DNA of 64,000 nucleotides, taken from sequence record CP071152.1; one strand, written 5' to 3'. Source of the DNA: a plasmid. The position numbers were made by a program, and so were the translations under genes. Below, piece by piece: positions 1,961-63,025 of this stretch; the stretch's first letter is position 1, and the number at the start of each line of letters is the position of its first letter. The notes beneath the pieces are model-generated. The model did not search any database, was not told where the DNA came from, and saw only the letters and a list, made by a program, of their open reading frames with translations.

Positions 1961-1971
1961 GGAAGGACTAG

Positions 1972-8151: not shown

Positions 8152-8238
8152 TGCTTAAATGCAGCCTTAAATTTATGACACTAATCACACAAATAACCTT
8201 GTAGGCTATAACCGGCTAGGTTATATTTATTTCAAGAG

Positions 8239-8484
8239 GTGAGGCAAAGGTGCCGAGCCAAAAGTAGAAAGGTGACAAAAATGAGTAACGCAGCCATCGA
8301 GTTCATCAATGTAATCGGTTCAAACATGGAAGAAGTGAACAAGCCGCTTATCTCAATAAAGAATGTCTTGGAGGATGGTGAAGCGCTGGGTTATCTGGGG
8401 GTGACTGATGAAGATCAAGGGATGGTCGAGGAGGCTCACGATATTGTCAGCAACTGGATAAAAGAAGGTAAAGAGTTCCTCTAA
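8239..8484 (+). CDS. Small acidic hypothetical protein, first gene of the small-gene module
   Basis: 81 aa. Its stop overlaps the next start (ATGA at 8481-8484). An AT-rich promoter-like region with ATAACC repeats lies upstream. Confidence 0.5.
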   Translation: MRQRCRAKSRKVTKMSNAAIEFINVIGSNMEEVNKPLISIKNVLEDGEALGYLGVTDEDQGMVEEAHDIVSNWIKEGKEFL

Positions 8485-8702
8485 TGACCCCAGAGCAAGT
8501 CAAACAGGCCCGGTTAACTCTGGGCCTTAGTCAGTCTCAAATGTGCAAGGCTTTGAGGCTCACTAGCGTCATGACCTACGCCAAGTGGGAGCAAGGGACA
8601 GCCAAGCCAACCGCATCGGCAGCCGCATCCATAGAGATGTTGCTTTATATGAGAACTGCTGGAGTGCTGGATGGTTGGATTGCCAAACATGCAAACAGTT
8701 AG
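8484..8702 (+). CDS. XRE-family helix-turn-helix transcriptional regulator
   Basis: The sequence 'ARLTLGLSQSQMCKALRLTSVMTYAKWEQG' is a typical Cro/C1-type HTH. It is translationally coupled to the upstream gene. Confidence 0.7.
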   Translation: MTPEQVKQARLTLGLSQSQMCKALRLTSVMTYAKWEQGTAKPTASAAASIEMLLYMRTAGVLDGWIAKHANS

Positions 8703-8717
8703 AGGAAAAAACAGACC

Positions 8718-8939
8718 ATGGAAATGAACTGGATCAGCGTAAAGGACGAGCTACCGAAATTGGGTGAGCCTGTGCTGTTGTGTGATTGGTCTGGGGTGGT
8801 TCAGAAGCAAACATTCTACAGGGACTACGATGATGTATCGGATTTCTGGCAGGACGTTGGCGATAACCATGACGGCGTGCCGCTAAATATCGGCGATCAC
8901 TGGATGCCGTTACCACCCCCCTCGCATATTGCTGGTTGA
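8718..8939 (+). CDS. DUF551-like phage-associated protein
   Basis: N-terminal 'WISVKDELPK' and C-terminal 'HWMPLPPPS' match DUF551 hallmarks. Preceded by the conserved GAGGAAAAAACAGACCATG junction. Confidence 0.5.
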   Translation: MEMNWISVKDELPKLGEPVLLCDWSGVVQKQTFYRDYDDVSDFWQDVGDNHDGVPLNIGDHWMPLPPPSHIAG

Positions 8940-8956
8940 TAGAGGAAAAACAGACC

Positions 8957-9265
8957 ATGAGCAAGAAGGTATATCCGCTCGATATTCAGAGCGTTGGTGG
9001 CGATGAATACATCGTCATGTCTCGCGGCCATCACGATATGCACGACTTCATGAAGGCGGTGCGGGCCGAGGGCTATGAGTGGCCCCTGGGTGTCCCTGAG
9101 CATCGCTGGGCGAAGGTCACACCGGATTCAACCGGTGAATGCACCTGCCTTTACCACTTCGTTGAGGAAGGTACTCGCGGGGCGTTTCCGGTGACGTACT
9201 CATGGGAAGCATATGGGGATGATGCCTATGAGGCTAAATACCCATCTATGGCCGCAGCAAGTTAA
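8957..9265 (+). CDS. Hypothetical protein
   Basis: The ORF 8936..9265 has an internal ATG at 8957 ('MSKKVYPL') preceded by the conserved GAGGAAAAACAGACC junction. Confidence 0.5.
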   Translation: MSKKVYPLDIQSVGGDEYIVMSRGHHDMHDFMKAVRAEGYEWPLGVPEHRWAKVTPDSTGECTCLYHFVEEGTRGAFPVTYSWEAYGDDAYEAKYPSMAAAS

Positions 9266-9280
9266 GGGAAAAACGGACTC

Positions 9281-9553
9281 ATGAGTAACGAAAATCACCA
9301 GCTATTCACCACCGAGCAGATCCGCCAGCGCCTTGAGGAAGGGGGCGAATCTGCCCGCTGGTTGGCTCAGGCTGTTGTCTCCTACTACCGGCCAGCAGCA
9401 CCGGCCCCTAGCTTGTTTGCCTTCTCTACGGAGCTGGACGAAGAGGCGCAGGGAATGTTTTTCCAACTGCTGTTGATCCGCAGCAAGCCGGATTGGTCTG
9501 ATGACCAGCTCGCCGCCCTGGTGCGCGAGTGCGAACAGCACCTCACCAACTGA
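9281..9553 (+). CDS. Hypothetical protein
   Basis: A 90-aa ORF preceded by AAGGGAAAAACGGACTCATG. Confidence 0.5.
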   Translation: MSNENHQLFTTEQIRQRLEEGGESARWLAQAVVSYYRPAAPAPSLFAFSTELDEEAQGMFFQLLLIRSKPDWSDDQLAALVRECEQHLTN

Positions 9554-9565
9554 TCGAGGAAAAGA

Positions 9566-10567
9566 GTGACAAAATCTATAGCCGCGATGCAGCCGGGTTT
9601 TTTGGATCAGCAATTGCGCACCAACATGAATGTGGAGTCCAAAAAACCAGAAAGGTGCTTGGTAGAATGCGGACGAAAATTCTCAAAGGTTTGGAATAGT
9701 ATCGAGCAAGTACGTGCCAGACGCGGTATATCTTTACCAATGTGGCCGGATTGGTGTTTTTTTCCGATGTCAGGTTGGGCCACTTTGACGCATGAACTCT
9801 TGTCATCTGAGGCTGGCGGCAAGCTTACCTTTAGCGATGCAAAAGTGCTTGCTGTTCAAGGCGGAGCAATGGGCACTTGGCGCTACAGTCAGGGTATTTA
9901 TCGCTTCGATGAATCTGTGTATAGCAGTCTGGTAAGTTCGGCACTGCAAGGTGATATTCCCTCTGAAGTGCTAACGCGGCTTCCAGAATGGGCGGTATAT
10001 ATCGAAACACCAAATTTATTACAAGGGAGGTGCGATGGATTCTGGGCGTTACTGGACTGGGGGACAGATGGTATTTCGGATAAGTTAATTATAGTTCTTA
10101 ACCTACGTGGCAATCTTGTGTCGATGCTGCTGTCCCTTGGGGGTGGGTCTATTCAGGAATCACTTGAGCGAACTTTCAAGGAATGTGGTCACGTTGACAG
10201 CGAGGAAGCTGTTGTACAAGCCAAATTTGGCGCACTAATCGCAGCACCTTGCATTTCTCTGCTGCTCTACCTCTGTCAGTCTGAGCCGGAGATTGAGGAT
10301 GAACGTGTCCCAGGTAGTTTTCCCTCAAGGGCAGCACCTCGAAAGGTTAAAGGGGGGATGCGATTATTCCCCGCCGACCGAGTACGCACATGGGTCGTCG
10401 GCAAAGAGACCGGGGAAAAGATCCGTCAAGCGTGGCAAGGTGGGGAAGGTGGCAAGGTCACACCTCACCTGCGAAGGGCCCATTGGCACGGCTTCTGGAA
10501 GGGGCCTCTCAATGGCGAGCGTACATTTAGCTACAAATGGCTGCCACCTATCCCTGTGGGTGGATAA
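9566..10567 (+). CDS. Hypothetical 333-aa protein (no recognisable domain)
   Basis: An ORF preceded by GATCGAGGAAAAGAGTGAC. The start is GTG at 9566 or ATG at 9587. Confidence 0.45.
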   Translation: MTKSIAAMQPGFLDQQLRTNMNVESKKPERCLVECGRKFSKVWNSIEQVRARRGISLPMWPDWCFFPMSGWATLTHELLSSEAGGKLTFSDAKVLAVQGGAMGTWRYSQGIYRFDESVYSSLVSSALQGDIPSEVLTRLPEWAVYIETPNLLQGRCDGFWALLDWGTDGISDKLIIVLNLRGNLVSMLLSLGGGSIQESLERTFKECGHVDSEEAVVQAKFGALIAAPCISLLLYLCQSEPEIEDERVPGSFPSRAAPRKVKGGMRLFPADRVRTWVVGKETGEKIRQAWQGGEGGKVTPHLRRAHWHGFWKGPLNGERTFSYKWLPPIPVGG

Positions 10568-10676
10568 GACAGGGCTTCGACTAGGAACGGAGTTTTGGCC
10601 TTGCTGTCGTGAATGCCAGAGCGCCATTGAAGATTTAGAGTGCCTTGATGGCGCATAAGTTAAGGGAAAAACGACG

Positions 10677-11228
10677 ATGACTCCACAACAACAAGCCAGC
10701 GCATGGCTTCTCAATTGCGCGATTTTGGATACGGAAACTACTGGGCTATATGACGACGCCGAGATCGTCGAGATCAGCATCATCGACGAAAATGGTGGTG
10801 TCCTGCTGGATACCCTCGTCAAGCCCCTCAAGCCGATTCCGGCAGAGGCAACCGCCATCCACGGCATCACCAATGAAATGGTGGCCACGGCCCCGACATG
10901 GGCCGCCATCCATGAGCAGGTGGCCAAGATTGTCGCCAGCAAACCGCTGGTGATTTATAACGCCGATTACGATCTGCGTTTGATGGCTCAAACCGCCGTG
11001 CAATACGGGCTCACTCCGATAGGGACAGAGGCAGGCTGCGCCATGCTGACCTATGCCGAGCACTATGACGAATGGAACGAGTACAAAGGTACGTACCGCT
11101 GGCAGAAGCTGACCAACGCCGCTGCCCAGCAAGGAGTGGTTATCGACGGCAAGGCGCACCGCGCCCTTGCTGATGTGAAGATGACGCTCGGGGTGATCAA
11201 AGCTATGGCTGGACTTAGTTCTAACTGA
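10677..11228 (+). CDS. DEDDh-family 3'-5' exonuclease (DnaQ/epsilon-like)
   Basis: Exo I 'ILDTETTGL', Exo II 'LVIYNADYDLRLM' and Exo III 'KAHRALADV' motifs are all present. Preceded by AAGGGAAAAACGACGATG. Confidence 0.8.
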   Translation: MTPQQQASAWLLNCAILDTETTGLYDDAEIVEISIIDENGGVLLDTLVKPLKPIPAEATAIHGITNEMVATAPTWAAIHEQVAKIVASKPLVIYNADYDLRLMAQTAVQYGLTPIGTEAGCAMLTYAEHYDEWNEYKGTYRWQKLTNAAAQQGVVIDGKAHRALADVKMTLGVIKAMAGLSSN

Positions 11229-11241
11229 TCGAGGAAAAATA

Positions 11242-11604
11242 ATGCTCACTAAAAACGATATATTCCCAATGTTCGTAAATGTAAGTCTCATCATCGGAGG
11301 CGTGGTTTTGATTTGTCTGGCTGGAACGGATGAATCACTGACACAGCATGTTCAAGCATCTGTGACCTGGACAACCTCGATTTGCACCTTCATAGTCAAC
11401 TCGATCATTGCGCTCGCTACATTCAACGCATCACTGAAACTTTGGAACGGTAGCCGATACCTATGTGTAGGCGTTATTGCGTTAGGGATTGGTTTATTAA
11501 CCGCAACCCAAGTCTTCCTTTTGCCTTTTTTGGAGCAAACTTTTGGAGCCACTGGGGATTATTTTGTCGAGTATGTGAAGCTCATTTCCAATCCAGCCAA
11601 TTGA
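11242..11604 (+). CDS. Small integral membrane protein
   Basis: 120 aa with three or four hydrophobic segments. Preceded by GATCGAGGAAAAATAATG. Confidence 0.5.
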   Translation: MLTKNDIFPMFVNVSLIIGGVVLICLAGTDESLTQHVQASVTWTTSICTFIVNSIIALATFNASLKLWNGSRYLCVGVIALGIGLLTATQVFLLPFLEQTFGATGDYFVEYVKLISNPAN

Positions 11605-24858: not shown

Positions 24859-25419
24859 TCAGTCGTCCGTGCGGAGGTACTGGTAGAGGGTTTCCCGGCT
24901 GATGTTGAACTCGCGGGCAAGCTGCGCCTTGGGCTCGCCGGCCGTCGCTCGCTGCCGCAGGGTAGCAGCCTGCTCATCGGACAGGGCTTTCTTGCGGCCC
25001 CGGTACGCGCCACGCTGCTTGGCCAAGGTGATGCCCTCACGCTGCCGCTCGCGGATCAGGGCGCGCTCGAACTCAGCGAAGGCCCCCATCACCGACAGCA
25101 TCAGGTTGGCCATCGGCGAGTCCTCGCCAGTGAACACCAGGCCCTCCTTCAGGAACTCGATGCGCACGCCGCGTTGAGTCAGCTTCTGTACCAAGCGACG
25201 CAGGTCATCGAGGTTGCGGGCCAGCCGGTCCATGCTGTGCACCACCACTGTATCGCCTTCGCGGACGAAGCTCAGCAGCGCTTCGAGCTGGGGGCGCTGG
25301 GTGTCCTTGCCCGATGCCTTGTCGGTGAACACCTTGCTCACCTTTGTCTGTTCCAGCTGGCGTTCCGGGTTCTGGTCGAAGCTGCTGACCCGGACGTAGC
25401 CGATGCGGTGCCCCTGCAC
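24859..25419 (-). CDS. tnpR: Tn21-family serine resolvase TnpR
   Basis: 186 aa. 'MQGHRIGYVRVSSFDQNPERQ' with the Ser10 catalytic motif. Confidence 0.95.
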   Translation of the reverse strand: MQGHRIGYVRVSSFDQNPERQLEQTKVSKVFTDKASGKDTQRPQLEALLSFVREGDTVVVHSMDRLARNLDDLRRLVQKLTQRGVRIEFLKEGLVFTGEDSPMANLMLSVMGAFAEFERALIRERQREGITLAKQRGAYRGRKKALSDEQAATLRQRATAGEPKAQLAREFNISRETLYQYLRTDD

Positions 25420-37946: not shown

Positions 37947-39194
37947 CTATTCCATCCACAAGTCGTCGAGGTTCTTGAAGTTCCAGAGCGTCGGGTCTTC
38001 GGGGCCAGTGATACTGTCCTTGCAACTCGTGGCCGCCAGGTCGATGGTCTGCATCGGGATCGGCTCTCTCGAGCGTAGCGAGAAGAACACGCGAACCTTG
38101 GGAGTCAGCAGTGATTCCATTCCCGGCTCAACGACAACGGCCAGACGCTGAGAGGACAGGCGAACCAAGGAGCCGACGGGGTAGATGCCCACGGCCTTGA
38201 CGAAGGCGTGGAAGATGCGTTTGTCGAAATGGCCCTCCCACTTGGCCATCTGCCGCATCGCCGCGGACGGGTCCCACGGCTTTTTGTAGGCTCGCTCCGA
38301 CGTCACGGCATCATAGACGTCGCAGATTGCGCCCATGCGGGCCAGGAGTGAAATGGCGTCACCGGCCAAGCGATCCGGGTAGCCGGTTCCGTCGATCTTC
38401 TCGTGATGGTGCAGGGCAATGTCCACCACCCCGGGCTCGGCCCCGCCTGCGCGCAGCATCTTTGCGCCCTCCACAGGGTGGCGCTTCATGATGGCGAACT
38501 CGGCATCGGTGAGCTTGCCTGGTTTGTTAAGCACTTCCAGCGGCATCGCGGCCTTGCCTAGGTCGTGCATCAGTCCGCCGATGCCAGCCAGGCGCGTTTG
38601 CTCCTCGTCTAGATCGAGATGCCGGGCCAGCGATAGCATCAGGGCGCAGACGGCAACCGAGTGCAGGTAGGTGTAATCGTCGTGCGTTTTGATGCGTGCG
38701 ACGCTGATGAGGGCATGAGGTTGGCGCAGCACCGAGGCAGCGATTTCTCCGACCAGCGGCAACGTCGTGCTTGGGTCGACGGCCTTGCCAAGCCGGGCTT
38801 CCTGGAACATGTCCATGACTTGGGACTTGGCCGCAAGACAGAGTTTCCGTGCATAACACATTTCGCTCTCCATTGAGGTTGCGCCGTCACTTTTCTTGCT
38901 TAGTGGACTAGACGGCAGAGATTGCTCCTCCGACAATTCTCTGGGCTCTGGGCTCTGGGCTCTCTGGGCTCTGGGCTCTGGGCTCTCTGGGCTCTCTGGG
39001 CTCTCTGGGTCGACTTGGCTTTTGGCCAAGTCGACCCAGACCTCCCCGACGCCACATTCTCGAATGGCAGAGAGATCCTGAGGCTCGGTCAGCAGGAAGC
39101 TGCCGCGCCAGAATGGGTGTCGAAACCAAGAGCCGGCGAGCTTGTGGATGTACATGCCGAGACGAAGCTCGGATACGGGAATGCGTTTTACCAA
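37947..39194 (-). CDS. HD-GYP domain c-di-GMP phosphodiesterase with an N-terminal PESPE repeat tract
   Basis: 'HDLGK...HHEKIDGTGYP' gives the HD and GYP motifs. The N-terminal region contains 'PESPESPESPEPRAQRAQSPEPRE'. Confidence 0.75.
   Translation of the reverse strand: MVKRIPVSELRLGMYIHKLAGSWFRHPFWRGSFLLTEPQDLSAIRECGVGEVWVDLAKSQVDPESPESPESPEPRAQRAQSPEPRELSEEQSLPSSPLSKKSDGATSMESEMCYARKLCLAAKSQVMDMFQEARLGKAVDPSTTLPLVGEIAASVLRQPHALISVARIKTHDDYTYLHSVAVCALMLSLARHLDLDEEQTRLAGIGGLMHDLGKAAMPLEVLNKPGKLTDAEFAIMKRHPVEGAKMLRAGGAEPGVVDIALHHHEKIDGTGYPDRLAGDAISLLARMGAICDVYDAVTSERAYKKPWDPSAAMRQMAKWEGHFDKRIFHAFVKAVGIYPVGSLVRLSSQRLAVVVEPGMESLLTPKVRVFFSLRSREPIPMQTIDLAATSCKDSITGPEDPTLWNFKNLDDLWME
38935..39005. 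repeat. In-frame tandem repeat (CTGGGCTCT-like 9-bp units) inside the HD-GYP gene
   Basis: 'ctgggctctgggctctctgggctctgggctctgggctctctgggctctctgggctctctggg'. Confidence 0.8.
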
Positions 39195-39311
39195 CTTATT
39201 TTCCTTTCTGAGTTGGGTGGTTAGGCGTGCGCCGAGGCTGGCACCCAGCGGTAGAGCGGAGGTAAGGTCACGCCAAGATTCTTGGATCAGCCGGAACCGC
39301 CGAAATTTCCG

Positions 39312-39704
39312 TCAGCCGATCAACATGGCTTTGTCTCGCGCTCGGTCGATGCGTTCCTGCATCGCCTGCATGACTTCTTCGTGGGTGTACGACTTGGCGT
39401 TGGGGTCGTCGGCCTCTCGGAGAGCTTCCTCGACCTCGCGGGTCATCCGCGCATATTCTTCCGGCCACAGCGCTTGCTCCATGCGCAGCGACGCCTGCCC
39501 AAGCAGGTGCAGCAGGCCGAACAGCCGCATGTCATTGGTGGCGACGACGTGCTCTCGAATCCGCTCCTGGATCACCTCGCAGGCCCGATGCGCCTCTGGC
39601 GTCGCCGTGCCCTCGTAGCCGGCTGGGAGTTCTGCTTCTTCAGCGATTCGCGCCCAAGCGATAGCCAGCGCCTCGATGGTGGACAGGTTCATTTGCTCAT
39701 CCAC
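39312..39704 (-). CDS. Hypothetical protein
   Basis: A 130-aa ORF in the same orientation as the flanking minus-strand genes. Confidence 0.35.
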   Translation of the reverse strand: MDEQMNLSTIEALAIAWARIAEEAELPAGYEGTATPEAHRACEVIQERIREHVVATNDMRLFGLLHLLGQASLRMEQALWPEEYARMTREVEEALREADDPNAKSYTHEEVMQAMQERIDRARDKAMLIG

Positions 39705-40015
39705 TTGCGCAGCAGACGCTTTTTCAGGGAGGCGCGCTCTTGCGGATTGCGTCCCTTGTGGTTGGCAATGCGATCCGCCGTGGCGGCCTGGCGCTTGATG
39801 GGCCAGTAGGAGCGGCCATCCTTACCCATCGACCAGACGTTGCTGACCTGGTTTTCCAGTAGAGGCAGATGGGCGCATAGAGCTTCCGGCGACGCGCTGG
39901 CCAGCGCGGTGCGCTCGTGGGTTCGCCAGCGCTGATGCCAGAGTTTCTTGTCCTCGCGCTCGCTACGGCAGGTCGTGTGCCCAACGATGGGCGTTTTGCG
40001 GCGGCTGCGGCTCAT
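39689..40015 (-). CDS. Hypothetical basic protein (MSRSRRKTPIVGHTTCRSEREDK...)
   Basis: A 108-aa ORF with a basic N-terminus typical of small phage/ICE accessory proteins. Confidence 0.35.
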   Translation of the reverse strand: MSRSRRKTPIVGHTTCRSEREDKKLWHQRWRTHERTALASASPEALCAHLPLLENQVSNVWSMGKDGRSYWPIKRQAATADRIANHKGRNPQERASLKKRLLRKWMSK

Positions 40016-40038
40016 GATGTGGTTGTCTCCAAGAACAT

Positions 40039-40476
40039 TCAGGACAGGCTTTCTGGGTAGAGCGCCGTCAACCGGGACAGGGTTTCTTGCACTTGTTCCA
40101 GCGAGGTCATCAGATGATCAACCTGATCCTGAAGATCCACGGCGAGATCAAATAGCTCAGCCACTCGGCTGCGTGATCCCTCGTTGAACGCGGCCATTGC
40201 CAGTTGATGCAGCTTCAACAGGTCGGTGCGCAGTTGCGGAGGTGCGCCGTCTGCGCTGTCATTCAAATCGCCGCGCAGCACGTCCACGGCATCGACTGCA
40301 CGCAGCAGTGCCGTGGTATCGAAATTCTCGGGAGTCAGTTCGTCCCATTCGTCGTCGGTGATGCGGGCTGCCATCAGGAGAGCTCCGATTAAGCGGTTGC
40401 GAGCGTTAGATGCCCGATCGGCTCGGCTGCTGGCCGTACCTTGATTTCGATGTCGTAGCCGAGGCGATTCAGACAA
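40039..40476 (-). CDS. Hypothetical protein
   Basis: A 145-aa ORF. Confidence 0.3.
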   Translation of the reverse strand: MSESPRLRHRNQGTASSRADRASNARNRLIGALLMAARITDDEWDELTPENFDTTALLRAVDAVDVLRGDLNDSADGAPPQLRTDLLKLHQLAMAAFNEGSRSRVAELFDLAVDLQDQVDHLMTSLEQVQETLSRLTALYPESLS

Positions 40477-40724
40477 TCCATCAGCTTGCGTTCGGATAGA
40501 TTGGTGAAGTCGCCGCGCATCATGCCCGACACCTTCGGTTGCGGGATGCCCATGCGTTTGGCCGCCGCTTGTTGAGTCAGCCCAAGGGCGCGCATGGCCC
40601 TCCTGATCTCGACCACCAGGCCGGTCTTGATCTTGAGCTTTTCAGCGTCAGGCAGTCCAAGGTCGGCAAAGACGTTGCCCGAGCTGCGCTGAACCTCGAC
40701 GCCTTCAATGATTCGTTTTTGCAT
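40389..40724 (-). CDS. HTH (XRE/HigA-like) antitoxin
   Basis: 'LGLTQQAAAKRMGIPQPKVSGMMRGDF' is an HTH. It lies directly downstream of the toxin gene. Confidence 0.7.
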   Translation of the reverse strand: MQKRIIEGVEVQRSSGNVFADLGLPDAEKLKIKTGLVVEIRRAMRALGLTQQAAAKRMGIPQPKVSGMMRGDFTNLSERKLMDCLNRLGYDIEIKVRPAAEPIGHLTLATA

Positions 40725-40725
40725 T

Positions 40726-41082
40726 TCATAGCTCCTGTGCCAATACCTCGGCCACCTTCAGCCGAGCGCGGATGATGTCCATGTCGGCCTTTGGCGTGGC
40801 GATTCCGCTCTTGCTCTTCTTCTGGAAGCAGTGCAGGACGAACACCGCTTCCGCAAACTTGACCGTGTATACCGCTCGATAGGTGCCGCCGGCATCGTCT
40901 TCGACGACCTTCAGCACGCCGGCACCACCGAACCCCTTGAGCTCCTTTGCTGCGTCATCCTGATCGCCTATCTGCGCCAACGAGAGCGCGTAACCGAAAC
41001 GGCGACGCACGTCGGACGGCAACGCCATCAAATCCTTGTGGCTGCTCGCGATCCATTCGAGCGGTTTTTCTTTGTTTGTCAT
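40726..41082 (-). CDS. RelE/ParE-superfamily (HigB-like, phage-related) toxin
   Basis: 'YRAVYTVKFAEAVFVLHCFQKKSKSGIATPKADMDIIRARLK' is the killer-protein fold signature. The gene order is toxin then antitoxin. Confidence 0.7.
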   Translation of the reverse strand: MTNKEKPLEWIASSHKDLMALPSDVRRRFGYALSLAQIGDQDDAAKELKGFGGAGVLKVVEDDAGGTYRAVYTVKFAEAVFVLHCFQKKSKSGIATPKADMDIIRARLKVAEVLAQEL

Positions 41083-41185
41083 GACGGAATTTTATACCTG
41101 TTCAGGTAATGATGTAAACGCGGCAACCTCAAGGAGGTGTCGTAAAACATTTGTTTTGCGACAGGCTGTCAGCCGCCGCTGTGCT

Positions 41186-41485
41186 ATGTCATTTTCAGAA
41201 GACGACTGCACCAGACAACGCGGTTTGAAGGCTGTTGTGCAGTCGTCTATTGAACGAACAGTATCAGGAGTCCGCTGCACGAATGATGACCTCAAGCCGG
41301 TTCTGGTCGCGCTGGCGACCGATCAGCCCCTGGATGTGCGATACCGCGACCACGATCTTTCCGGCGATTGGGCGGGCTACCGCGAATGCTACATCAAGCC
41401 CGACCTGCTGCTGATCTACCGCAAGTCCGACGCCGACACCCTGCGACTGGCGCGGCTTGGCTCCCATAGCGAGCTGTTCGGCTGA
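41186..41485 (+). CDS. RelE/YafQ-family toxin-like protein whose first codons lie in the IRt
   Basis: The C-terminus 'LSGDWAGYRECYIKPDLLLIYRKSDADTLRLARLGSHSELFG' is a RelE/YafQ signature. The ATG straddles the IRt boundary. No cognate antitoxin ORF is present. Confidence 0.55.
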   Translation: MSFSEDDCTRQRGLKAVVQSSIERTVSGVRCTNDDLKPVLVALATDQPLDVRYRDHDLSGDWAGYRECYIKPDLLLIYRKSDADTLRLARLGSHSELFG

Positions 41486-42211
41486 TGCCAGTCGCCTTGT
41501 CCGCCAAACGATCATTAGTCGGCCATGCCGGACACTGTCCAGCAAAGTTATTGCACAACGGGTTGTCGGACATTAAGATAGGCGGACGGAATGACGGACA
41601 AGAGAGGCGGCAAATGGCACTGATCGGCTATGCGCGGGTATCGACGGCGGAACAGGACACCGCCTTGCAGACGGATGCGCTACGCAAGGCAGGCTGCGAG
41701 CGCGTTTTCGAGGACACGGCTTCCGGGGCCAAGGCCGACCGCCCCGGCTTGGCTGATGCGCTGGCCTACCTGCGCGACGGCGACGTGCTGGCCGTCTGGC
41801 GGCTGGATCGGCTCGGGCGCTCTATGCCGCACCTAATCGAAACGATAGGCGCGCTGGAAGCGCGAGGCGTCGGCTTCCGTTCTCTGACGGAAGCCATCGA
41901 CACCACCACGCCAGGCGGGCGGCTCATCTTCCACGTGTTCGGCGCGCTGGGCCAGTTCGAGCGCGACTTGATCCGCGAGCGCACCAAGGCCGGGTTGACT
42001 GCCGCCGCCGCTCGTGGGAGGAAGGGCGGGCGAAAGCCGGTTGTCACCGCCGACAAGTTGCAGCGAGCGCGGGAGCACATCGCCAACGGGCTTAATGTCC
42101 GAGAGGCCGCTACACGGCTCAAGGTGAGCAAGACGGCCCTGTACACCGCGCTGCAATCCACCAGTGCAGCCGACTCCTGATATTCCGTGCAGTCGTCTTC
42201 TGAAAATGACA
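41187..42211. mobile_element. 1,025-bp element bounded by two inverted copies of the Tn402 25-bp IRt, carrying a RelE/YafQ-like ORF and a serine recombinase
   Basis: TGTCATTTTCAGAAGACGACTGCAC lies at 41187-41211. Its reverse complement lies at 42187-42211. Both termini face outward. Confidence 0.75.
41614..42180 (+). CDS. Serine recombinase (resolvase/invertase family)
   Basis: 'MALIGYARVSTAEQDTALQ...' with a catalytic Ser and a C-terminal HTH 'VREAATRLKVSKTALY'. The stop is 6 bp before the IRt. Confidence 0.8.
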   Translation: MALIGYARVSTAEQDTALQTDALRKAGCERVFEDTASGAKADRPGLADALAYLRDGDVLAVWRLDRLGRSMPHLIETIGALEARGVGFRSLTEAIDTTTPGGRLIFHVFGALGQFERDLIRERTKAGLTAAAARGRKGGRKPVVTADKLQRAREHIANGLNVREAATRLKVSKTALYTALQSTSAADS

Positions 42212-42325
42212 CTCACGCGCAGGTAGATGCGTGCGACTTTCATGCGGGCCTCCTGGTCATTTTGGGTATAGGGAAAATGACCATTGTTTCACGCCTAGCC
42301 AAAAAGGGAAGGTTCCCGGTTCAAA

Positions 42326-42350
42326 TGTCGTTTTCAGAAGACGGCTGCAC
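42326..42350. mobile_element. IRi of class 1 integron / Tn402 (TGTCGTTTTCAGAAGACGGCTGCAC)
   Basis: An exact match to the known 25-bp IRi. Confidence 0.9.
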
Positions 42351-42527
42351 TGAACGTCAGAAGCCGACTGCACTATAGCAGCGGAGGGGTTGGATCCATC
42401 AGGCAACGACGGGCTGCTGCCGGCCATCAGCGGACGCAGGGAGGACTTTCCGCAACCGGCCGTTCGATGCGGCACCGATGGCCTTCGCGCAGGGGTAGTG
42501 AATCCGCCAGGATTGACTTGCGCTGCC

Positions 42528-43538
42528 CTACCTCTCACTAGTGAGGGGCGGCAGCGCATCAAGCGGTGAGCGCACTCCGGCACCGCCAACTTTCAGCACA
42601 TGCGTGTAAATCATCGTCGTAGAGACGTCGGAATGGCCGAGCAGATCCTGCACGGTTCGAATGTCGTAACCGCTGCGGAGCAAGGCCGTCGCGAACGAGT
42701 GGCGGAGGGTGTGCGGTGTGGCGGGCTTCGTGATGCCTGCTTGTTCTACGGCACGTTTGAAGGCGCGCTGAAAGGTCTGGTCATACATGTGATGGCGACG
42801 CACGACACCGCTCCGTGGATCGGTCGAATGCGTGTGCTGCGCAAAAACCCAGAACCACGGCCAGGAATGCCCGGCGCGCGGATACTTCCGCTCAAGGGCG
42901 TCGGGAAGCGCAACGCCGCTGCGGCCCTCGGCCTGGTCCCAGCCACCATGCCCGTGCACGCGACAGCTGCTCGCGCAGGCTGGGTGCCAAGCTCTCGGTA
43001 ACATCAAGGCCCGATCCTTGGAGCCCTTGCCCTCCCGCACGATGATCGTGCCGTGATCGAAATCCAGATCCTTGACCCGCAGTTGCAAACCCTCACTGAT
43101 CCGCATGCCCGTTCCATACAGAAGCTGGGCGAACAAACGATGCTCGCCTTCCAGAAAACCGAGGATGCGAACCACTTCATCCGGGGTCAGCACCACCGGC
43201 AAGCGCCGCGACGGCCGAGGTCTTCCGATCTCCTGAAGCCAGGGCAGATCCGTGCACAGCACCTTGCCGTAGAAGAACAGCAAGGCCGCCAATGCCTGAC
43301 GATGCGTGGAGACCGAAACCTTGCGCTCGTTCGCCAGCCAGGACAGAAATGCCTCGACTTCGCTGCTGCCCAAGGTTGCCGGGTGACGCACACCGTGGAA
43401 ACGGATGAAGGCACGAACCCAGTGGACATAAGCCTGTTCGGTTCGTAAGCTGTAATGCAAGTAGCGTATGCGCTCACGCAACTGGTCCAGAACCTTGACC
43501 GAACGCAGCGGTGGTAACGGCGCAGTGGCGGTTTTCAT
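42528..43538 (-). CDS. intI1: Class 1 integron integrase IntI1 (336 aa; a roughly 25-aa internal stretch is frame-shifted relative to the canonical sequence)
   Basis: The sequence matches IntI1 throughout, except that '[22 protein letters not shown]' replaces '[23 protein letters not shown]'. This indicates compensating indels. Confidence 0.9.
43423..43451 (+). promoter_or_regulatory. Integron cassette promoter Pc, weak variant (TGGACA-17-TAAGCT)
   Basis: The -35 is at 43423-43428 and the -10 at 43446-43451, inside intI1. Confidence 0.8.
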
Positions 43539-48457: not shown

Positions 48458-49275
48458 GGCACTGTTGCAAATAGTCGGTGGTGATAAACTTATCATCCCC
48501 TTTTGCTGATGGAGCTGCACATGAACCCATTCAAAGGCCGGCATTTTCAGCGTGACATCATTCTGTGGGCCGTACGCTGGTACTGCAAATACGGCATCAG
48601 TTACCGTGAGCTGCAGGAGATGCTGGCTGAACGCGGAGTGAATGTCGATCACTCCACGATTTACCGCTGGGTTCAGCGTTATGCGCCTGAAATGGAAAAA
48701 CGGCTGCGCTGGTACTGGCGTAACCCTTCCGATCTTTGCCCGTGGCACATGGATGAAACCTACGTGAAGGTCAATGGCCGCTGGGCGTATCTGTACCGGG
48801 CCGTCGACAGCCGGGGCCGCACTGTCGATTTTATCTCTCCTCCCGTCGTAACAGCAAAGCTGCATACCGGTTTCTGGGTAAAATCCTCAACAACGTGAAG
48901 AAGTGGCAGATCCGCGATTCATCAACACGGATAAAGCGCCCGCCTATGGTCGCGCGCTTGCTCTGCTCAAACGCGAAGGCCGGTGCCCGTCTGACGTTGA
49001 ACACCGACAGATTAAGTACCGGAACAACGTGATTGAATGCGATCATGGCAAACTGAAACGGATAATCGGCGCCACGCTGGGATTTAAATCCATGAAGACG
49101 GCTTACGCCACCATCAAAGGTATTGAGGTGATGCGTGCACTACGCAAAGGCCAGGCCTCAGCATTTTATTATGGTGATCCCCTGGGCGAAATGCGCCTGG
49201 TAAGCAGAGTTTTTGAAATGTAAGGCCTTTGAATAAGACAAAAGGCTGCCTCATCGCTAACTTTGCAACAGTGCC
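48458..49275 (+). mobile_element. Second IS26 copy (818 bp) in direct orientation; tnp26 is broken by two 1-bp deletions (Tn4352-like IS26-aphA1-IS26 unit)
   Basis: The IRs are intact. 'gattttatctc' replaces 'gatttttatctc' (one T lost) and 'cagatccgcgatt' replaces 'cagatcccgcgatt' (one C lost). Confidence 0.9.
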
Positions 49276-49711
49276 CGCCGATGCGCTCAAGCCGTGGATT
49301 GCGCGGCGTGAACGCTGGCCGTCCTTTCTGATCCGGCGCGATCCGCGCGACATCAGCCGTATCTGGGTCCTGGAACCGGAGGGACAGCATTACCTGGAAA
49401 TTCCCTACCGTACCTTGTCGCATCCGGCTGTCACCCTCTGGGAACAACGGCAGGCGCTGGCGAAACTGCGGCAGCAAGGGCGCGAACAGGTGGATGAGTC
49501 GGCGCTGTTCCGCATGATCGGCCAGATGCGTGAGATTGTGACCAGCGCGCAGAAGGCCACACGCAAGGCGCGGCGTGACGCGGATCGCCGCCAGCACCTC
49601 AAGACATCAGCTCGGCCGGACAAGCCCGTTCCGCCGGATACGGATATTGCCGACCCGCAGGCAGACAACTTGCCACCCGCCAAACCGTTCGACCAGATTG
49701 AGGAGTGGTAG
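49276..49711 (+). pseudogene. tniA: tniA (Tn402 transposase), 3' fragment truncated by IS26
   Basis: The C-terminal '...FDQIEEW*' is the end of TniA. The reading frame begins at the IS26 boundary. Confidence 0.8.
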
Positions 49712-50706
49712 CCGTGGACGAATATCCCATCATCGACCTGTCCCACCTGCTGCCGGCGGCCCAGGGCTTGGCCCGTCTTCCGGCGGACGAGCGCATCCAG
49801 CGCCTTCGCGCCGACCGCTGGATCGGCTATCCGCGCGCAGTCGAGGCGCTGAACCGGCTGGAAGCCCTTTATGCGTGGCCAAACAAGCAACGCATGCCCA
49901 ACCTGCTGCTGGTTGGCCCGACCAACAATGGCAAGTCGATGATCGTCGAGAAGTTCCGCCGCACCCACCCGGCCAGCTCCGACGCCGACCAGGAGCACAT
50001 CCCGGTGTTGGTCGTGCAGATGCCGTCCGAGCCGTCCGTGATCCGCTTCTACGTCGCGCTGCTCGCCGCGATGGGCGCGCCGCTGCGCCCACGCCCACGG
50101 TTGCCGGAAATGGAGCAACTGGCTCTGGCACTGCTGCGCAAGGTCGGCGTGCGCATGCTGGTGATCGACGAGCTGCACAACGTGCTGGCCGGCAACAGCG
50201 TCAACCGCCGGGAATTCCTCAACCTGCTGCGCTTCCTCGGCAACGAACTGCGCATCCCGTTGGTTGGGGTAGGCACGCGCGACGCCTACCTAGCCATCCG
50301 CTCCGATGACCAGTTGGAAAATCGCTTCGAGCCGATGATGCTGCCGGTATGGGAGGCCAACGACGATTGCTGCTCACTGCTGGCCAGCTTCGCCGCTTCG
50401 CTCCCGCTGCGCCGGCCTTCCCCAATTGCCACGCTGGACATGGCTCGCTACCTGCTCACACGCAGCGAGGGCACCATAGGGGAACTGGCGCACTTGCTGA
50501 TGGCGGCGGCCATCGTCGCCGTGGAGAGCGGCGAGGAAGCGATCAACCATCGCACACTCAGCATGGCCTGTCGACAACCTCTCGCGCAACCAAGACATCG
50601 CGGTCGGACTGCAAGTGATCTTGAAGCCACGGGCCCGTCCCACCCCGACATGGACCTCGATGCCCGAACGGACGTTAGATTTCGAGTTCTAGGCGTTCTG
50701 CGATGA
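49705..50706 (+). pseudogene. tniB: tniB (NTP-binding transposition protein), 3'-truncated (tniBΔ) and fused to 3'-CS sequence
   Basis: A Walker A motif 'GPTNNGKS'. It matches TniB up to about codon 290, then reads into unrelated sequence antisense to orf5. Confidence 0.8.
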
Positions 50707-52254: not shown

Positions 52255-53100
52255 ATGAAAACCGCCACTGCGCCGTTACCACCGCTGCGTTCGGTCAAGG
52301 TTCTGGACCAGTTGCGTGAGCGCATACGCTACTTGCATTACAGTTTACGAACCGAACAGGCTTATGTCCACTGGGTTCGTGCCTTCATCCGTTTCCACGG
52401 TGTGCGTCACCCGGCAACCTTGGGCAGCAGCGAAGTCGAGGCATTTCTGTCCTGGCTGGCGAACGAGCGCAAGGTTTCGGTCTCCACGCATCGTCAGGCA
52501 TTGGCGGCCTTGCTGTTCTTCTACGGCAAGGTGCTGTGCACGGATCTGCCCTGGCTTCAGGAGATCGGAAGACCTCGGCCGTCGCGGCGCTTGCCGGTGG
52601 TGCTGACCCCGGATGAAGTGGTTCGCATCCTCGGTTTTCTGGAAGGCGAGCATCGTTTGTTCGCCCAGCTTCTGTATGGAACGGGCATGCGGATCAGTGA
52701 GGGTTTGCAACTGCTGGCGGCACTGGTCCCGCCACCTCGCGCGCATCTCACCCGCTTCCACGGCGTATTCGCCCCGAATGCAAACCTGCGTGCGCAGCTG
52801 ACGCCATCGGGGCGCGGCAAGCGGCCTGCGAGCGATGCAGTGCCGGTGGACGTCAGCGCCCACGACGAGCCGCGCAGCCCCGAGCAGAAGCGCCGTGCGA
52901 TGAGCTGGGCGCAACGGCTCAAGCGGGTCTTTTCCATCGACATCACCACCTGCGCCCACTGCGGCGGCGCGGTGCGGATCGTCGCCAGCATCGAGGAACC
53001 CACCGCCATCCGCGCCATCCTCGCCCACTTCGAGAAGCACGGCGCGCTGGAGCAAGCGCACTACCGGCCCGCAGCGCGCGCGCCGCCGCCGGCCGCGTGA
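52255..53100 (+). pseudogene. Chimeric ORF: intI1 5' 143 codons fused to the 3' 138 codons of an ISCR (IS91-family) transposase
   Basis: '[10 protein letters not shown]...[10 protein letters not shown]' is IntI1. '|[23 protein letters not shown]...[13 protein letters not shown]' is the ISCR transposase C-terminus. The junction is near 52710. Confidence 0.85.
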
Positions 53101-56392: not shown

Positions 56393-56627
56393 TAATTAAT
56401 CTAGAGCCGACATTCCCCAAGTGGCCTGCCGCTTGACTTCAAGATCGCCTGATTTTGCTCGCTGGGCAAGCGTTTTTCGCCCCGAGCGGTGTCTGTCGTC
56501 GCGCAAACGGCCGAAGTCGGGTGGATCAAGCCTCGAACCCGCAGCATTCTGGCCCGGCAGAGCCGCTTTTCCGCGCGGCAGACGGACCTGTCCTGCCGCT
56601 TTCGTTCAGCTTGGGCATGGATCGTGG

Positions 56628-56845
56628 TCATGCGCATGACGGAGGCGTTCGAAGACGGCGGATGGCGGCAAGGACGGCCCGCACCATCGGGCCGGTGACG
56701 GCGACCTCGGCCAACTGGAAGGTAATGGCGCGGGCGTGGCGGACGACGCGGGCGCCGATCTTGATCAGCTTGAGTTGCAGGCTGGTCAACGACCAGTCCG
56801 CCATGGCCTCGGGCAGTTCGATGCAGCGCAGGAAGGAGAGGCTGG
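56628..56845 (-). pseudogene. C-terminal fragment of a DDE transposase (IS4/IS5-like 'LQLKLIKIGARVVRHARAITFQLAEVAV'), cut by the ISCR junction
   Basis: The ORF 56628..56900 diverges from ISCR sequence upstream of about 56845. Confidence 0.5.
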
Positions 56846-58355
56846 TGGCGTATTCCTGCAAGAAGCGCGGGCTGTGCCCGAGCTGCGGCGCACGGCGCAT
56901 GGCCGAGTCGGCGCGGCATCTGGTGGACGAGGTGTTCGGCCCGCGGCCGGTGCGGCAATGGGTGCTGAGTTTCCCCTACCCGTTGCGCTTCCTGTTCGCC
57001 AGCAAGCCGGAGGCCATCAGCCCGGTGCTGGGCATCGTGCATCGTGTGATCGCCGGTTGGCTTGCCGATCAGGCCGGCGTGCCGCGGGATACGGCGCAAT
57101 GCGGCGTGGTGACCCTGATCCAGCGCTTCGGCAGCGCGCTGAATCTCAACATCCACTTCCACATGCTGTGGCTCGACGGCGTGTACGACGCGAACGTCGA
57201 GCCGCCGCGGCGCAAGCCGCGCCTGCGCCGCGCCCGTGCCCCCACCTCTGCGCAACTGACGCAGCTCGCCAACACCATCGCGCATCGCGTCTGCCGGCAC
57301 CTGACGCGCAAAGGCTGGCTGGAAGGCGAAGACGAATCCGTGTTCCTGTCCGACAGCGCGGGTAGCGACGACGGCATGGATGGGCTGCGGATGAGTTCGA
57401 TGACCTACCGCATCGCCACCGGTCGCGACGCTGGCCGCAAGGTCGTCACGCTGCAAACGCTACCCGGCGATGCGGGTTCTCTGGACGCCGACGCCGGCAA
57501 GGTCGGCGGCTTCTCGCTGCATGCCGGCGTGGCCGCGGAAGCACACGAAAGCCACAAGCTCGAAAAGCTGTGCCGCTACATCACGCGCCCGGCGATCAGC
57601 GAGCAGCGGCTGTCGATCTCACCGCAGGGTAGGGTGCGGTATCAGCTCAAGACGCCGTGGCGAAATGGGACCACGCATGTCGAATGGGATGCGGTGGACT
57701 TCATCGCCAAGCTGGCGGCGCTGGTCCCGCCACCGCGCGCCCACCTGACCCGCTTCCACGGGGTGTTTGCCCCGAACGCCGCCCTGCGCGCACAGTTGAC
57801 GCCATCGGGGCGCGGCAGGCGGCCTGCGGGCGATGCGGCGCCGGTTGACGCAAGCGCCCACGACGAGCCGCGCAGCCCCGAGCAGAAGCGCCGTGCGATG
57901 AGCTGGGCGCAACGGCTCAAGCGGGTCTTTTCCATCGACGTCACCACCTGCGCCCACTGCGGCGGCGCGGTGCGGATCGTCGCCAGCATCGAAGACCCCA
58001 AGGCCATTCGCGCCATCCTCGCCCACTTCGAGAAACACCGCGCGCTGGAGCAAGCGCACTACCGGCCCGCAGCGCGCGCGCCGCCGCCGGCCGCGTGACG
58101 AGGTGCCGGCCACACAGCCGGCAGCCAAGCCAGAGTCCGATCCGATGCGGCCACGACCCCGCAGGGCTGCGCTCGGCCCTGTGCCGGGATTCGGTGAGAA
58201 ATGGCTACGCACTGAGCCGCTGCGTGGCCCCGCGATGTCGAAAACCCACGCATGAACCCCCGATCTGTGCCCGATCTGTGCCCAAAGCGGCGCTTGCGCG
58301 GCCGCTTCCTACCCGCCAGACTCGCCAAAAAGGGCGGTTGAACTTCCTATACCCC
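56845..58355 (+). mobile_element. ISCR3/ISCR27-like element, 5'-truncated (transposase from about codon 125 onward, plus the oriIS end)
   Basis: The transposase ORF 56455..58098 matches the full copy from 'RLVAYSCKKRGLCPSCGARRM' onward. The HUH/Y2 motifs are 'NIHFHMLWLDGVY'. Confidence 0.85.
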
Positions 58356-60985: not shown

Positions 60986-63025
60986 GTCCGCCCATCGCGC
61001 CAGTGGTGGCGCGAAGGCGTCCGCGCAGCGGGCGAACCGCGCCCTCCAGCAAGCAAGCGTGACCACGAAGCCCGGCCTTTTGCCGGGCTTCGTGCTTTCT
61101 GGCGTCCGACGTGGGAAACGCCCTGTCTTAAGCGCGGCGATGTCCGATACGAAAACCGGAAAAGGCCGATATGAACCGGCCGGGGCGGGCGCAAGCCTGA
61201 GCAGCCATTCCCTGCACCGGAGTGTTTCGTGCCGCGCCTCGCCGCGACCGTGTCGCAGCTGCAGGATGCCGTGGCGCACGCAACGTCGCCGGCAGCGCAT
61301 CTGCCCACGGCTCGCTATGCGCCTCACCGTCCCGAGCGCACGCTGCTGTATTCGCTGGTGCAGGCGCATTGGCCGGACTTTCTCGCGCGCCGTGAGGTAG
61401 AAGACCGCCCGCTGCCCGAGTATGTGCGCGAGGAGTTCGAGACCTACCTGCGCTGCGGCGTGCTCGAGCACGGTTTCCTGCGCGTGGTGTGCGAGCACTG
61501 CCGTGCAGAGAGGCTGGTGGCGTATTCCTGCAAGAAGCGCGGGCTGTGCCCGAGCTGCGGCGCACGGCGCATGGCCGAGTCGGCGCGGCATCTGGTGGAG
61601 GAGGTGTTCGGCCCGCGGCCGGTGCGGCAATGGGTGCTGAGTTTCCCGTACCCGTTGCGCTTCCTGTTCGCCAGCAAGCCAGAAGCCATTGGCCCGGTGC
61701 TGGGCATCGTGCAGCGCGTGATCGCCGGCTGGTTGGCCGATCAAGTCGGCGTCGACCACGCCAGCGCGCAATGCGGCGTGGTGACCCTGATCCAGCGCTT
61801 CGGCAGCGCGCTGAATCTCAACATCCACTTCCACATGCTGTGGCTCGACGGCGTGTACGAGGACACCACCGAGCGTCCGCAGCGCAAGCCGCGCCTGCAC
61901 CGCACCCGTGCGCCCACATCGGCGCAACTGACGGAACTGGCCAACACCATCGCGCATCGCGTGTGCCGGCACCTGTCGCGCCGCGGCTGGCTCGAAGGCG
62001 AAGACGAATCCGTGTTCCTGTCCGACAGCGCGGGTAGCGACGACGGCATGGATGGGCTGCGGATGAGTTCGATGACCTACCGCATCGCCACCGGTCGCGA
62101 CGCTGGCCGCAAGGTCGTCACGCTGCAAACATTGCCCGGTGACGCAGGCTCGCTGGAGGGCGATGCCGGCAAGGTCGGCGGCTTCTCGCTGCATGCCGGC
62201 GTGGCCGCGGAAGCACACGAGAGCCACAAGCTCGAAAAGCTGTGCCGCTACATCACGCGCCCGGCGATCAGCGAGCAGCGGCTATCGATCTCACCGCAGG
62301 GAAGGGTGCGGTATCAGCTCAAGACGCCATGGCGCAATGGCACCACCCATGTCGAATGGGATGCGGTCGACTTCATCGCCAAGCTGGCGGCACTGGTCCC
62401 GCCACCTCGCGCGCATCTCACCCGCTTCCACGGCGTATTCGCCCCGAATGCAAACCTGCGCGCGCAGGTGACGCCATCGGGGCGCGGCAAGCGGCCTGCG
62501 GGCGATGCGGTGCCGGTGGACGTCAGCGCCCACGACGAGCCGCGCAGCCCCGAGCAGAAGCGCCGTGCGATGAGCTGGGCGCAACGGCTCAAGCGGGTCT
62601 TTTCCATCGACGTCACCACCTGCGCCCACTGCGGCGGCGCGGTACGGATCGTCGCCAGCATCGAGGAACCCAAAACCATCCGCGCCATCCTCGCCCACTT
62701 CGAGAAGCACGGCGCGCTGGAGCAAGCGCACTACCGGCCCGCAGCGCGCGCGCCGCCGCCGGCCGCGTGACGAGGTGCCGGCCACACAGCCGGCAGCCAA
62801 GCCAGAGTCCGATCCGATGCGGCCACGACCCCGCAGGGCTGCGCTCGGCCCTGTGCCGGGATTCGGTGAGAAATGGCTACGCACTGAGCCGTTGCGCGGC
62901 CCCGCGATGTCGAAAACCCACGCATGAACCCCCGATCTGTGCCCGATCTGTGCCCAAAGCGGCGCTTGCGCGGCCGCTTCCTACCCGCCAGACTCGCCAA
63001 AAAGGGCGGTTGAACTTCCTATACC
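60986..63025 (+). mobile_element. ISCR3/ISCR27-like rolling-circle element, full copy (terIS side, transposase, oriIS)
   Basis: A 513-aa transposase at 61229..62770. The oriIS-type end lies at 62771-63025. The groELΔ abuts the 5' (terIS) side. Confidence 0.85.
61229..62770 (+). CDS. ISCR (IS91-family HUH/Y2) transposase, 513 aa
   Basis: 'CEHCRAERLVAYSCKKRGLCPSCGARRM' is the zinc-binding N-terminus. 'NIHFHMLWLDGVY' is the HUH motif. Confidence 0.9.
   Translation: MPRLAATVSQLQDAVAHATSPAAHLPTARYAPHRPERTLLYSLVQAHWPDFLARREVEDRPLPEYVREEFETYLRCGVLEHGFLRVVCEHCRAERLVAYSCKKRGLCPSCGARRMAESARHLVEEVFGPRPVRQWVLSFPYPLRFLFASKPEAIGPVLGIVQRVIAGWLADQVGVDHASAQCGVVTLIQRFGSALNLNIHFHMLWLDGVYEDTTERPQRKPRLHRTRAPTSAQLTELANTIAHRVCRHLSRRGWLEGEDESVFLSDSAGSDDGMDGLRMSSMTYRIATGRDAGRKVVTLQTLPGDAGSLEGDAGKVGGFSLHAGVAAEAHESHKLEKLCRYITRPAISEQRLSISPQGRVRYQLKTPWRNGTTHVEWDAVDFIAKLAALVPPPRAHLTRFHGVFAPNANLRAQVTPSGRGKRPAGDAVPVDVSAHDEPRSPEQKRRAMSWAQRLKRVFSIDVTTCAHCGGAVRIVASIEEPKTIRAILAHFEKHGALEQAHYRPAARAPPPAA

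Follow-up and report, generated by a model that had tools for sequence, protein, structure and literature searches.

A short hybrid of ISPa17 beside a class 1 integron: a probable non-autonomous relative of Tn402 and Tn5053

What is the 1,025-bp segment that sits between two identical inverted repeats beside a class 1 integron in plasmid record CP071152.1, and how might it move? It occupies positions 41187-42211 of a 64,000-nucleotide stretch of that plasmid, which we call the window. A preliminary description saw here a mini-element with two outward-facing copies of the Tn402 IRt repeat, a RelE/YafQ-like open reading frame (ORF) and a serine recombinase. It suggested either mobilisation in trans by TniABQ or successive insertions of res-hunters into a resolvase locus. 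The segment is a relic of a mobile element that had been sequenced before: it is a short hybrid of ISPa17, itself a described element, and we refer to it as the short element. We argue that it is a non-autonomous 'res-site hunter' of the Tn5053/Tn402 type that is moved in trans by TniABQ, and we hold this to be about 80% probable.

Ends, arms and genes of the short element

Both ends of the unit carry the 25-mer TGTCATTTTCAGAAGACGACTGCAC: the plus-strand copy is at 41187-41211, the minus-strand copy at 42187-42211, and the two are 100% complementary. The outer termini (TGTCA...) at 41187 and 42211 both face away from the unit. The two 25-mers are therefore proper terminal inverted repeats of a 1,025-bp unit, and on this the preliminary description was right. 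Allowing up to 3 mismatches, the sole further copy in the window is the class 1 IRi at 42326-42350; shuffled sequence gave 0 matches. We take the 25-mer to be the class 1 IRt sequence because an identical 25-mer bounds the IRt end of the integron in pFBAOT6, where it flanks IS6100.

The label IRt-IRt fits the terminal 25-mers, but it is misleading since the right end has the organisation of an i-end. At the left end three repeats follow the layout of a t-end: the 25-mer, 25 nt, an inverted 18-mer, 7 nt and a direct 19-mer. Over 99 nt it shares 74.7% identity with the Tn402 IRt ends of pFBAOT6, and the left end (IRL) of canonical ISPa17 has the same layout. At the right end the 25-mer is followed after 6 nt by a second direct repeat. 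This spacing equals that of the integron IRi end, to which the right end is 84% complementary over 49 nt. We read the unit as having one t-type and one i-type end, even though both terminal 25-mers carry IRt sequence. Arrayed sub-terminal repeats with different t-end and i-end layouts are present as in the Tn5053/Tn402 family, where such repeats are TniA-binding sites. No ORF for tniA, tniB or tniQ lies within 41187-42211. The unit is therefore, at most, a defective and non-autonomous member of this family.

The same 1,025 bp are found at 100% identity in pFBAOT6, pEC-IMP and many other plasmids, and 347 records in PLSDB cover at least 80% of the unit. ISPa17 was first described in Rms149 (Haines et al. 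2005, as cited in PMC6614342). Rms149 carries both canonical ISPa17 and the short element. Its short copy adjoins an integron with a 114-bp spacer, as in the window, and differs from the window copy at one base. Canonical ISPa17 is 2,145 bp long and consists of IRL, then orf178, vapC and vapB on one strand, then res, the resolvase gene and IRR. Besides Rms149, its hosts include IncP-1 epsilon plasmids and VIM/IMP plasmids of Pseudomonas. The right arm of the short element (41498-42211, 714 bp) matches positions 1432-2145 of ISPa17 in pHH3414 at 713 of 714 nt (99.86%). The left arm (41187-41497, 311 bp) is unlike canonical ISPa17 beyond the first 25-28 nt, which contain 2 mismatches. The canonical left arm, IRL TGTCGTTTTCAGAAGGCGACTGCAC followed by orf178-vapC-vapB, is not present in the unit, and a fragment of yafQ is found instead. 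The right arm would thus be that of canonical ISPa17, and the left arm would come from another member of the family.

The two forms share res, the 188-aa resolvase, an i-type end with an IRt-identical 25-mer, the layout of the t-type left end, res-site targets, 5-bp duplications in relatives, and their pairing with class 1 integrons as 'ISPa17-based transposition units' (PMC6409357, PMC10311859). They differ in length, in the t-end, whose terminal 25-mer differs by 2 nt, and in the yafQ fragment that replaces orf178-vapC-vapB and leaves the short form without an intact toxin-antitoxin (TA) pair. The window copy also lacks a 5-bp duplication, unlike the canonical copies listed in Table 1. A separate ISPa17 variant of 2,538 bp is found in pKS208 (7055-9592 of locus L004). 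Its resolvase is 92% identical, an extra 127-aa ORF lies between the resolvase gene and the i-end, and its left repeat adjoins a truncated intI1.

Where were the two arms joined? Canonical ISPa17 is matched from 41498 onward. Another short form, type B, is 1,032 bp long (e.g. in pFF2-1h-mcr-9); it is 100% identical from 41187 to 41518 and ~88% identical thereafter. A type C in Thauera has a third right arm, which diverges at the point where type B does. Homology linked to yafQ in Xanthomonas stops at 41512. Since all of these arm breakpoints fall inside the 28-bp dyad at 41498-41525, we read the dyad as a putative res site I with its crossover at about 41511-41512. The short element is thus a recombinant: one shared left arm, made up of the t-end, the yafQ remnant and the left half of site I, has been combined with several right arms that differ from one another. 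Where the breakpoints fall suggests that a resolvase performed the exchange, so the arms would have been joined by resolvase-type recombination at res site I. The region from 41526 to 41613 is conserved among ISPa17 relatives, and the remaining res subsites of the unit can be assigned provisionally. The short element of Thauera sp. 2A1 (loci L024 and L029) has, besides its third type of right arm, a disrupted resolvase gene, and inserted in its t-end is a Tn21-type terminal repeat of 38 bp, accompanied by the end of a gene for a Tn3-family transposase.

The resolvase ORF is intact, and R8, S10, R66 and R69 are invariant in a multiple alignment. As first described, it encodes 188 aa and ends (stop codon 42178-42180) 6 bp short of the right repeat. 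The protein is 100% identical to the resolvase of ISPa17. In tblastn it is 51% identical over its full length to TniR of the Tn402/Tn5053 family, or 56% over the N-terminal 129 residues, and a multiple alignment gives 49-50%. Its identity to the other well-matched resolvase of the window (24859-25419) is 37-41%.

The preliminary description regarded the small ORF of the left arm as a toxin-like passenger without an antitoxin. It is a gene remnant, because the domain is truncated, there is no dinJ, a conserved His has become Tyr, and the ATG is supplied by the flank only. Homology to YafQ at the protein level starts near 41273-41281, and the first ~25 codons are missing. Only positions 20-88 of the 88 in Pfam YafQ_toxin are matched. 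The ORF scores 64.9 with NCBIfam TIGR00053 (cut-off 87.25), and tblastn aligns it with residues 23-93 of a 93-aa Xanthomonas YafQ at 88.7%. PDB chains of the YafQ family align only from residue ~29-33 onward. No dinJ/relB antitoxin gene lies upstream of the remnant, where the t-end is found directly; intact dinJ-yafQ pairs occur in Xanthomonas and in Comamonadaceae plasmids. The His of the RECH motif is catalytic in E. coli YafQ. Position 41390 is polymorphic among otherwise identical copies: it is T (Tyr) in the window, pFBAOT6 and pEC-IMP, and C (His) in Rms149, pRSB105 and environmental genomes. Full-length relatives also have His. An in-frame ATG does straddle the left repeat at 41186-41188, as had been noticed, but the window's flank creates it (...GCTA/TGTC..., with the slash at the junction). 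Other copies read ...CCAC/TGTC... and have no ATG.

The source of the left arm would be another family member with a dinJ-yafQ module beside res. An internal deletion would have removed everything between the t-end repeats and about codon 25 of yafQ, so that the antitoxin and the N-terminus of the toxin were lost together. The junction between the t-end and the remnant, at ~41281, is on the inner side of the end. The region 8674-11422 of locus L003 (Xanthomonas citri pXfc37) has an intact dinJ-yafQ. After it come the left half of the dyad of res site I, what remains of the inner repeat of an i-end, a BglII-like restriction-modification pair and a 25-mer resembling IRt. It may be a decayed ISPa17-family element with restriction-modification cargo.

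Proposed movement in trans and its rivals

On the reading we favour, the short element keeps three TniA-type repeats in its t-type end and two in its i-type end, together with a putative res and a TniR-like resolvase. The TniABQ proteins of a co-resident Tn402/Tn5053-type transposon would act on the ends and produce a cointegrate at or near a res site. This cointegrate would be resolved by the element's own resolvase and res, or by the resolvase of the target, leaving a 5-bp duplication. Pairing of the left end with the IRt of a neighbouring class 1 integron could occur as well, in which case the whole block would move. We infer the dependence on TniABQ from the architecture of the ends, the duplications, the choice of target, and the precedent of tni-defective relatives and class 1 integrons. 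Family members defective in tni are reported to be moved in trans (PMC7765201). Of the mechanisms that can be put forward, this one appears to be the best supported, given a unit with no transposase and duplications of 5 bp around one solo and one composite copy.

The distribution of the unit was surveyed by one exact-pattern scan of species-representative genomes and another of metagenome contigs, to which plasmid loci and the window were added. There are 65 copies in this survey, and 39 of them are complete with both flanks. The complete copies have 27 left flanks, 26 right flanks and 33 flank pairs, and every flank breaks off precisely where a repeat ends. Two contigs, 1,025 and 1,032 bp long, consist of the unit and nothing else, while a third of 1,027 bp has 2 bp in addition to it. 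A solo type B copy from a metagenome is flanked on both sides by AACTG; ~0.04 chance matches are expected among 39 copies. In pFBAOT6, GCCAC is found at the left end of the short element and again at the integron IRt ~6.7 kb away. Because this duplication brackets everything from the left end to the IRt, the short element and the integron moved there as one block. En bloc movement of 'ISPa17-based transposition units' has been proposed before (PMC6409357, PMC9952335, PMC10311859). The preliminary description asked whether the unit recurs as a discrete element with different flanks and 5-bp duplications; the unit is discrete and its flanks are many, and duplications of the short forms are seen in one solo and one composite copy.

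The flanks are also reassorted. One left flank is paired with five right flanks and with both arm types, and the parA' right flank is paired with four left flanks. Such pairings agree with transposition of a block from the left end combined with exchange at res, which would be why solo duplications are rare. Res sites and the 5' ends of resolvase genes are where the insertions are found, and the i-end is the one closest to the resolvase gene. A copy in B. cenocepacia is 92 bp upstream of a resolvase gene, and the right junction in the window is at codon 11 of parA.

One can also picture the short element as an immobile scar of past rearrangements that is now only carried along by class 1 integrons, plasmids and IS26-type events. 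Considered by itself, the window copy agrees with this: it has TGCTA on its left and CTCAC on its right, hence no 5-bp target duplication, and no tni genes. The commonest context is moreover a fixed block with parA' and IRi, with a right junction shared by 173 plasmid records, and nearly all complete copies are without duplications. However, a scar would not be expected to have 27 left and 26 right flanks that all break exactly at its termini, nor to make up whole contigs. The solo copy with its duplication, the composite duplication in pFBAOT6, and the window's left junction, which is a precise insertion into a res site, do not agree with it either. We consider a scar unlikely.

Several papers assume that ISPa17 is an autonomous insertion sequence (IS), and on that assumption the unit's own serine recombinase, with or without the small ORF, would be its transposase. 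The literature does speak of 'ISPa17 transposases' and of en bloc movement driven by ISPa17 (PMC6409357, PMC9952335, PMC3260659), and the unit is widespread without linked tni genes. Serine recombinases make no target duplications, yet the relatives have duplications of 5 bp, and for this reason a serine transposase was rejected. The 188-aa protein is of the resolvase type, there is a res-like site upstream of it, and its full-length identity to TniR is ~50%. The model for IS607 serine transposases gives it a score of 21.6, where the cut-off is 110. As for the other ORF, it is a truncated toxin. This leaves orf178, which several papers on ISPa17 call a transposase. Its 178-aa product (782-1318 of locus L010, in canonical ISPa17) has no match in Pfam or NCBIfam, and the short form is without it. 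The published idea of an ISPa17-encoded transposase has no support in these sequences, and an autonomous IS seems to us even less probable than a scar.

It is very improbable that the repeats belong to two separately truncated Tn402-like elements that flank a resolvase locus: the arms do differ in origin and the surrounding DNA is a stack of res-hunter insertions, but the termini face outward with their inner multi-repeat parts inside the unit, the unit recurs intact in at least 33 flank combinations, and the arms are joined at the res dyad, away from transposon termini. The geometry of the ends puts no Tn402-like bodies outside the segment, although the arms do appear to come from two ISPa17-family elements joined at res. 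The same geometry led us to reject successive res-hunter insertions for the interior of the unit, since the bodies of the ends point inward. That suggestion does hold for the neighbourhood, with parA/res on the right and a Tn3-family res on the left.

There are points that weigh against mobilisation by TniABQ, and they should be stated together. The 5-bp duplication is lacking in 38 of the 39 complete short copies, the one in the window included. That TniABQ acts on the ends of this unit is something we infer, and the window holds only fragments of tniA and tniB. Published papers ascribe the movement to 'ISPa17 transposases'. An exchange of flanks could also come about by homologous recombination within the left arm, of which 332 bp are shared. 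For the res subsites, the prediction comes from the symmetry of the dyad and from the breakpoints. An undeleted ancestor of the left arm (t-end...dinJ-yafQ-res) was not found when the dinJ-yafQ region of Xanthomonas was used as the query; this search gave intact pairs and an Aeromonas fragment with dinJ only, with no Tn402-type repeat adjoining.

A further and rather doubtful possibility is that the short element serves less as a transposon than as a portable cassette of res and resolvase, which swaps arms, flanks and adjacent class 1 integrons between replicons through site-specific recombination at res site I. If true, this would explain why one left flank occurs with five right flanks and one right flank with four left flanks, and why duplications are scarce.

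The flanks and the history of the locus

The coordinates of the features in and around the unit are given in Table 1 along with the copies of canonical ISPa17.

Table 1. Features of the locus in the window and copies of canonical ISPa17 in other replicons (positions of the ISPa17 copies are those in the locus analysed)
Feature	Replicon	Position	Strand	Remarks
Antitoxin gene beside left target	window	40389-40724	-	of a higBA-like pair; Pfam Gp49 and HTH_37 for the pair
Toxin gene beside left target	window	40726-41082	-	of the same pair
Left target, part of a Tn3-family res region	window	41083-41186		uninterrupted in pW2
Left (t-type) end	window	41187-41280	+	25-nt repeat 41187-41211, inverted 18-nt repeat 41237-41254, direct 19-nt repeat 41262-41280
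5'-truncated yafQ remnant	window	41281-41485	+	stop codon 41483-41485; no dinJ
Putative res site I, 28-bp dyad	window	41498-41525		TGTCCGCCAAACG-AT-CATTAGTCGGCCA; centre 41511-41512; arm junction
Rest of putative res region and resolvase promoter	window	41526-41613		repeated CGGACA/TGTCC half-site-like motifs
Serine recombinase (resolvase), 188 aa, TniR-like	window	41614-42180	+	Pfam Resolvase 4-136, E=2.4e-47
Right (i-type) end	window	42163-42211	-	25-nt repeat 42187-42211, inner repeat 42164-42182 overlapping the resolvase stop codon
114-bp IncP-1 epsilon parA remnant	window	42212-42325	-	first 10 2/3 codons (MKVARIYLRV) and upstream res region
Class 1 integron IRi end	window	42326-42374	+	intI1 at 42528-43538, minus strand
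Canonical ISPa17	pHH3414	608-2752		duplication TCACG
Canonical ISPa17	B. cenocepacia plasmid	2056-4200		duplication GCCCT
Canonical ISPa17	Rms149	38367-40511		duplication CGCGG
Canonical ISPa17	pTE_C_2	4301-6445		duplication CTCAC

The preliminary description placed the element 114 bp from the integron IRi, and this distance is correct. Window positions 41498-42350 are identical to the IncP-1 epsilon plasmid pTE_C_2 at 850 of 853 nt (3 differences). In pTE_C_2 a canonical ISPa17 lies in codon 11 of parA between copies of CTCAC, and a Tn402-type integron has its IRi 114 bp away. A ParA resolvase of 211 aa is restored there when ISPa17 and one CTCAC are taken out. Two insertions in parA are described in PMC3260659, which matches the arrangement in pTE_C_2. 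Because of the match to this canonical insertion and its duplication, we argue that the right junction in the window was inherited from an insertion of ISPa17 in parA and that the left arm was exchanged later. A synthetic junction query found no solo insertion of the short unit in parA with parA continuing to the left; what it did bring up was pTE_C_2.

Right ends of the ISPa17 type are found at three adjacent positions in one codon region of parA. Their flanks are TCACG (L010), CTCAC (L077 and the window) and GCTCA (L001), and the spacers to IRi are 113, 114 and 115 bp, respectively. This suggests repeated insertions or slippage by 1 bp at one hotspot.

On the left, the flank is identical to pW2, where the sequence runs on into a resolvase gene that starts 52 bp past the junction. 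In Rms149 the higBA-like pair is as in the window and is followed by tnpR and tnpA. The left repeat therefore lies in a Tn3-family res site with the t-end distal to tnpR. Members of the Tn5053/Tn402 family are reported to insert in this orientation, the i-end being closest to the resolvase gene (PMC7765201). Positions 7299-11391 of locus L006 (pNY7610-IMP) hold a different Tn5053-family element, with the repeat TGTCATTTTCAGAAGTCGATTGCAC, which sits in the same Tn3-family res 2 bp from the site of the window's left junction. Since that element was inserted 2 bp away, we take the site to be a target of res-hunters and the window junction to be an independent event. The cargo of the pNY7610-IMP element includes a chemotaxis-type protein and an HD-GYP protein, and a second tniABQ element is nested in its own res. 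The left junction of the window was found in 0 plasmid records at a coverage of at least 80%. The other half of the left target, TGCTA followed by a Tn3-family tnpR, is absent from the window, and there is no further partner IRt in the window within 3 mismatches. The partner is probably missing because the integron array is cut after blaOXA-1.

We propose the following history. ISPa17 and a class 1 integron would first have inserted into a parA/res locus of the IncP-1 epsilon type. The left arm would then have been swapped at res. The resulting block, the short element with parA' and the integron, would have transposed into the res site of a Tn3-family transposon, and the far end of the block would have been lost later.

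In the integron, intI1 departs from the reference gene of pEC-IMP: 2 bp are deleted at 42939 and 1 bp at 42996, a compensated frameshift with a 336-aa product. Upstream of intI1 are further deletions of 2 bp and 1 bp at 43553 and 43574. These indels could be assembly errors or could mean a real defective integrase. The cut array holds aac(6')-Ib and blaOXA-1. In an ORF at 52255-53100 (+), residues 1-154 of IntI1 are joined to the C-terminal portion of an ISCR1 transposase, and there are two more copies of ISCR1 at 56455-58098 and 61229-62770. The tni fragments lie at 49238-50568, namely a C-terminal fragment of tniA (49238-49708) and a near-complete tniB (49714-50568, +; residues 1-285 of 302). 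Their orientation is opposite to that expected for the integron at 42326. The window as a whole has no tniQ and no intact tniA.

Relatives of the short element and its meaning

A literature search for a separately named short form or for 'non-autonomous Tn5053' elements returned only the related Tn6606 and Tn6607. These tni-defective Tn5053-family members, like the class 1 integrons In0 and In2, which are also defective in tni, share with the short element the 25-bp family repeats, the absence of tniABQ, a location in or near res sites, and 5-bp duplications. Movement by tni functions in trans was shown for In0 and In2 and is otherwise thought to occur (PMC7765201). Tn6607 keeps res-tniR (PMC7765201), as the short element keeps a putative res and a TniR-like resolvase. 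Unlike them, the short element is without mer or integron cargo and much smaller; the identity of its resolvase to TniR is only ~50%, and its movement in trans is a proposal.

Compared with the autonomous res-site hunters Tn402 and Tn5053, the short element has the same terminal 25-mer, multi-repeat t- and i-ends, a putative res and a resolvase on the i-end side, a 5-bp duplication, and a preference for res targets with fixed orientation (PMC7765201). It differs in being without tniA, tniB and tniQ, hence non-autonomous. The family model of the IS607-like serine-recombinase transposons is unmatched, and relatives show duplications, which serine recombinases do not make. Relatives of the short element also carry dinJ-yafQ or vapBC immediately beside res and the resolvase gene, and in this they resemble the TA modules beside res in Tn3-family transposons. 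Such pairs reportedly appear integral to the transposition module of those transposons. In the short element the module is destroyed: the antitoxin and the N-terminus of the toxin are deleted, and the His is replaced.

None of this changes the current understanding of Tn402/Tn5053-family biology. The value of the short element is mainly for annotation. The 'YafQ family toxin' and 'recombinase' that are found beside intI1 in hundreds of resistance plasmids are one ISPa17-derived unit with inverted repeats at its ends rather than a TA system, and the left end of this unit can act as the outer end of a larger block that brings a class 1 integron into res sites.

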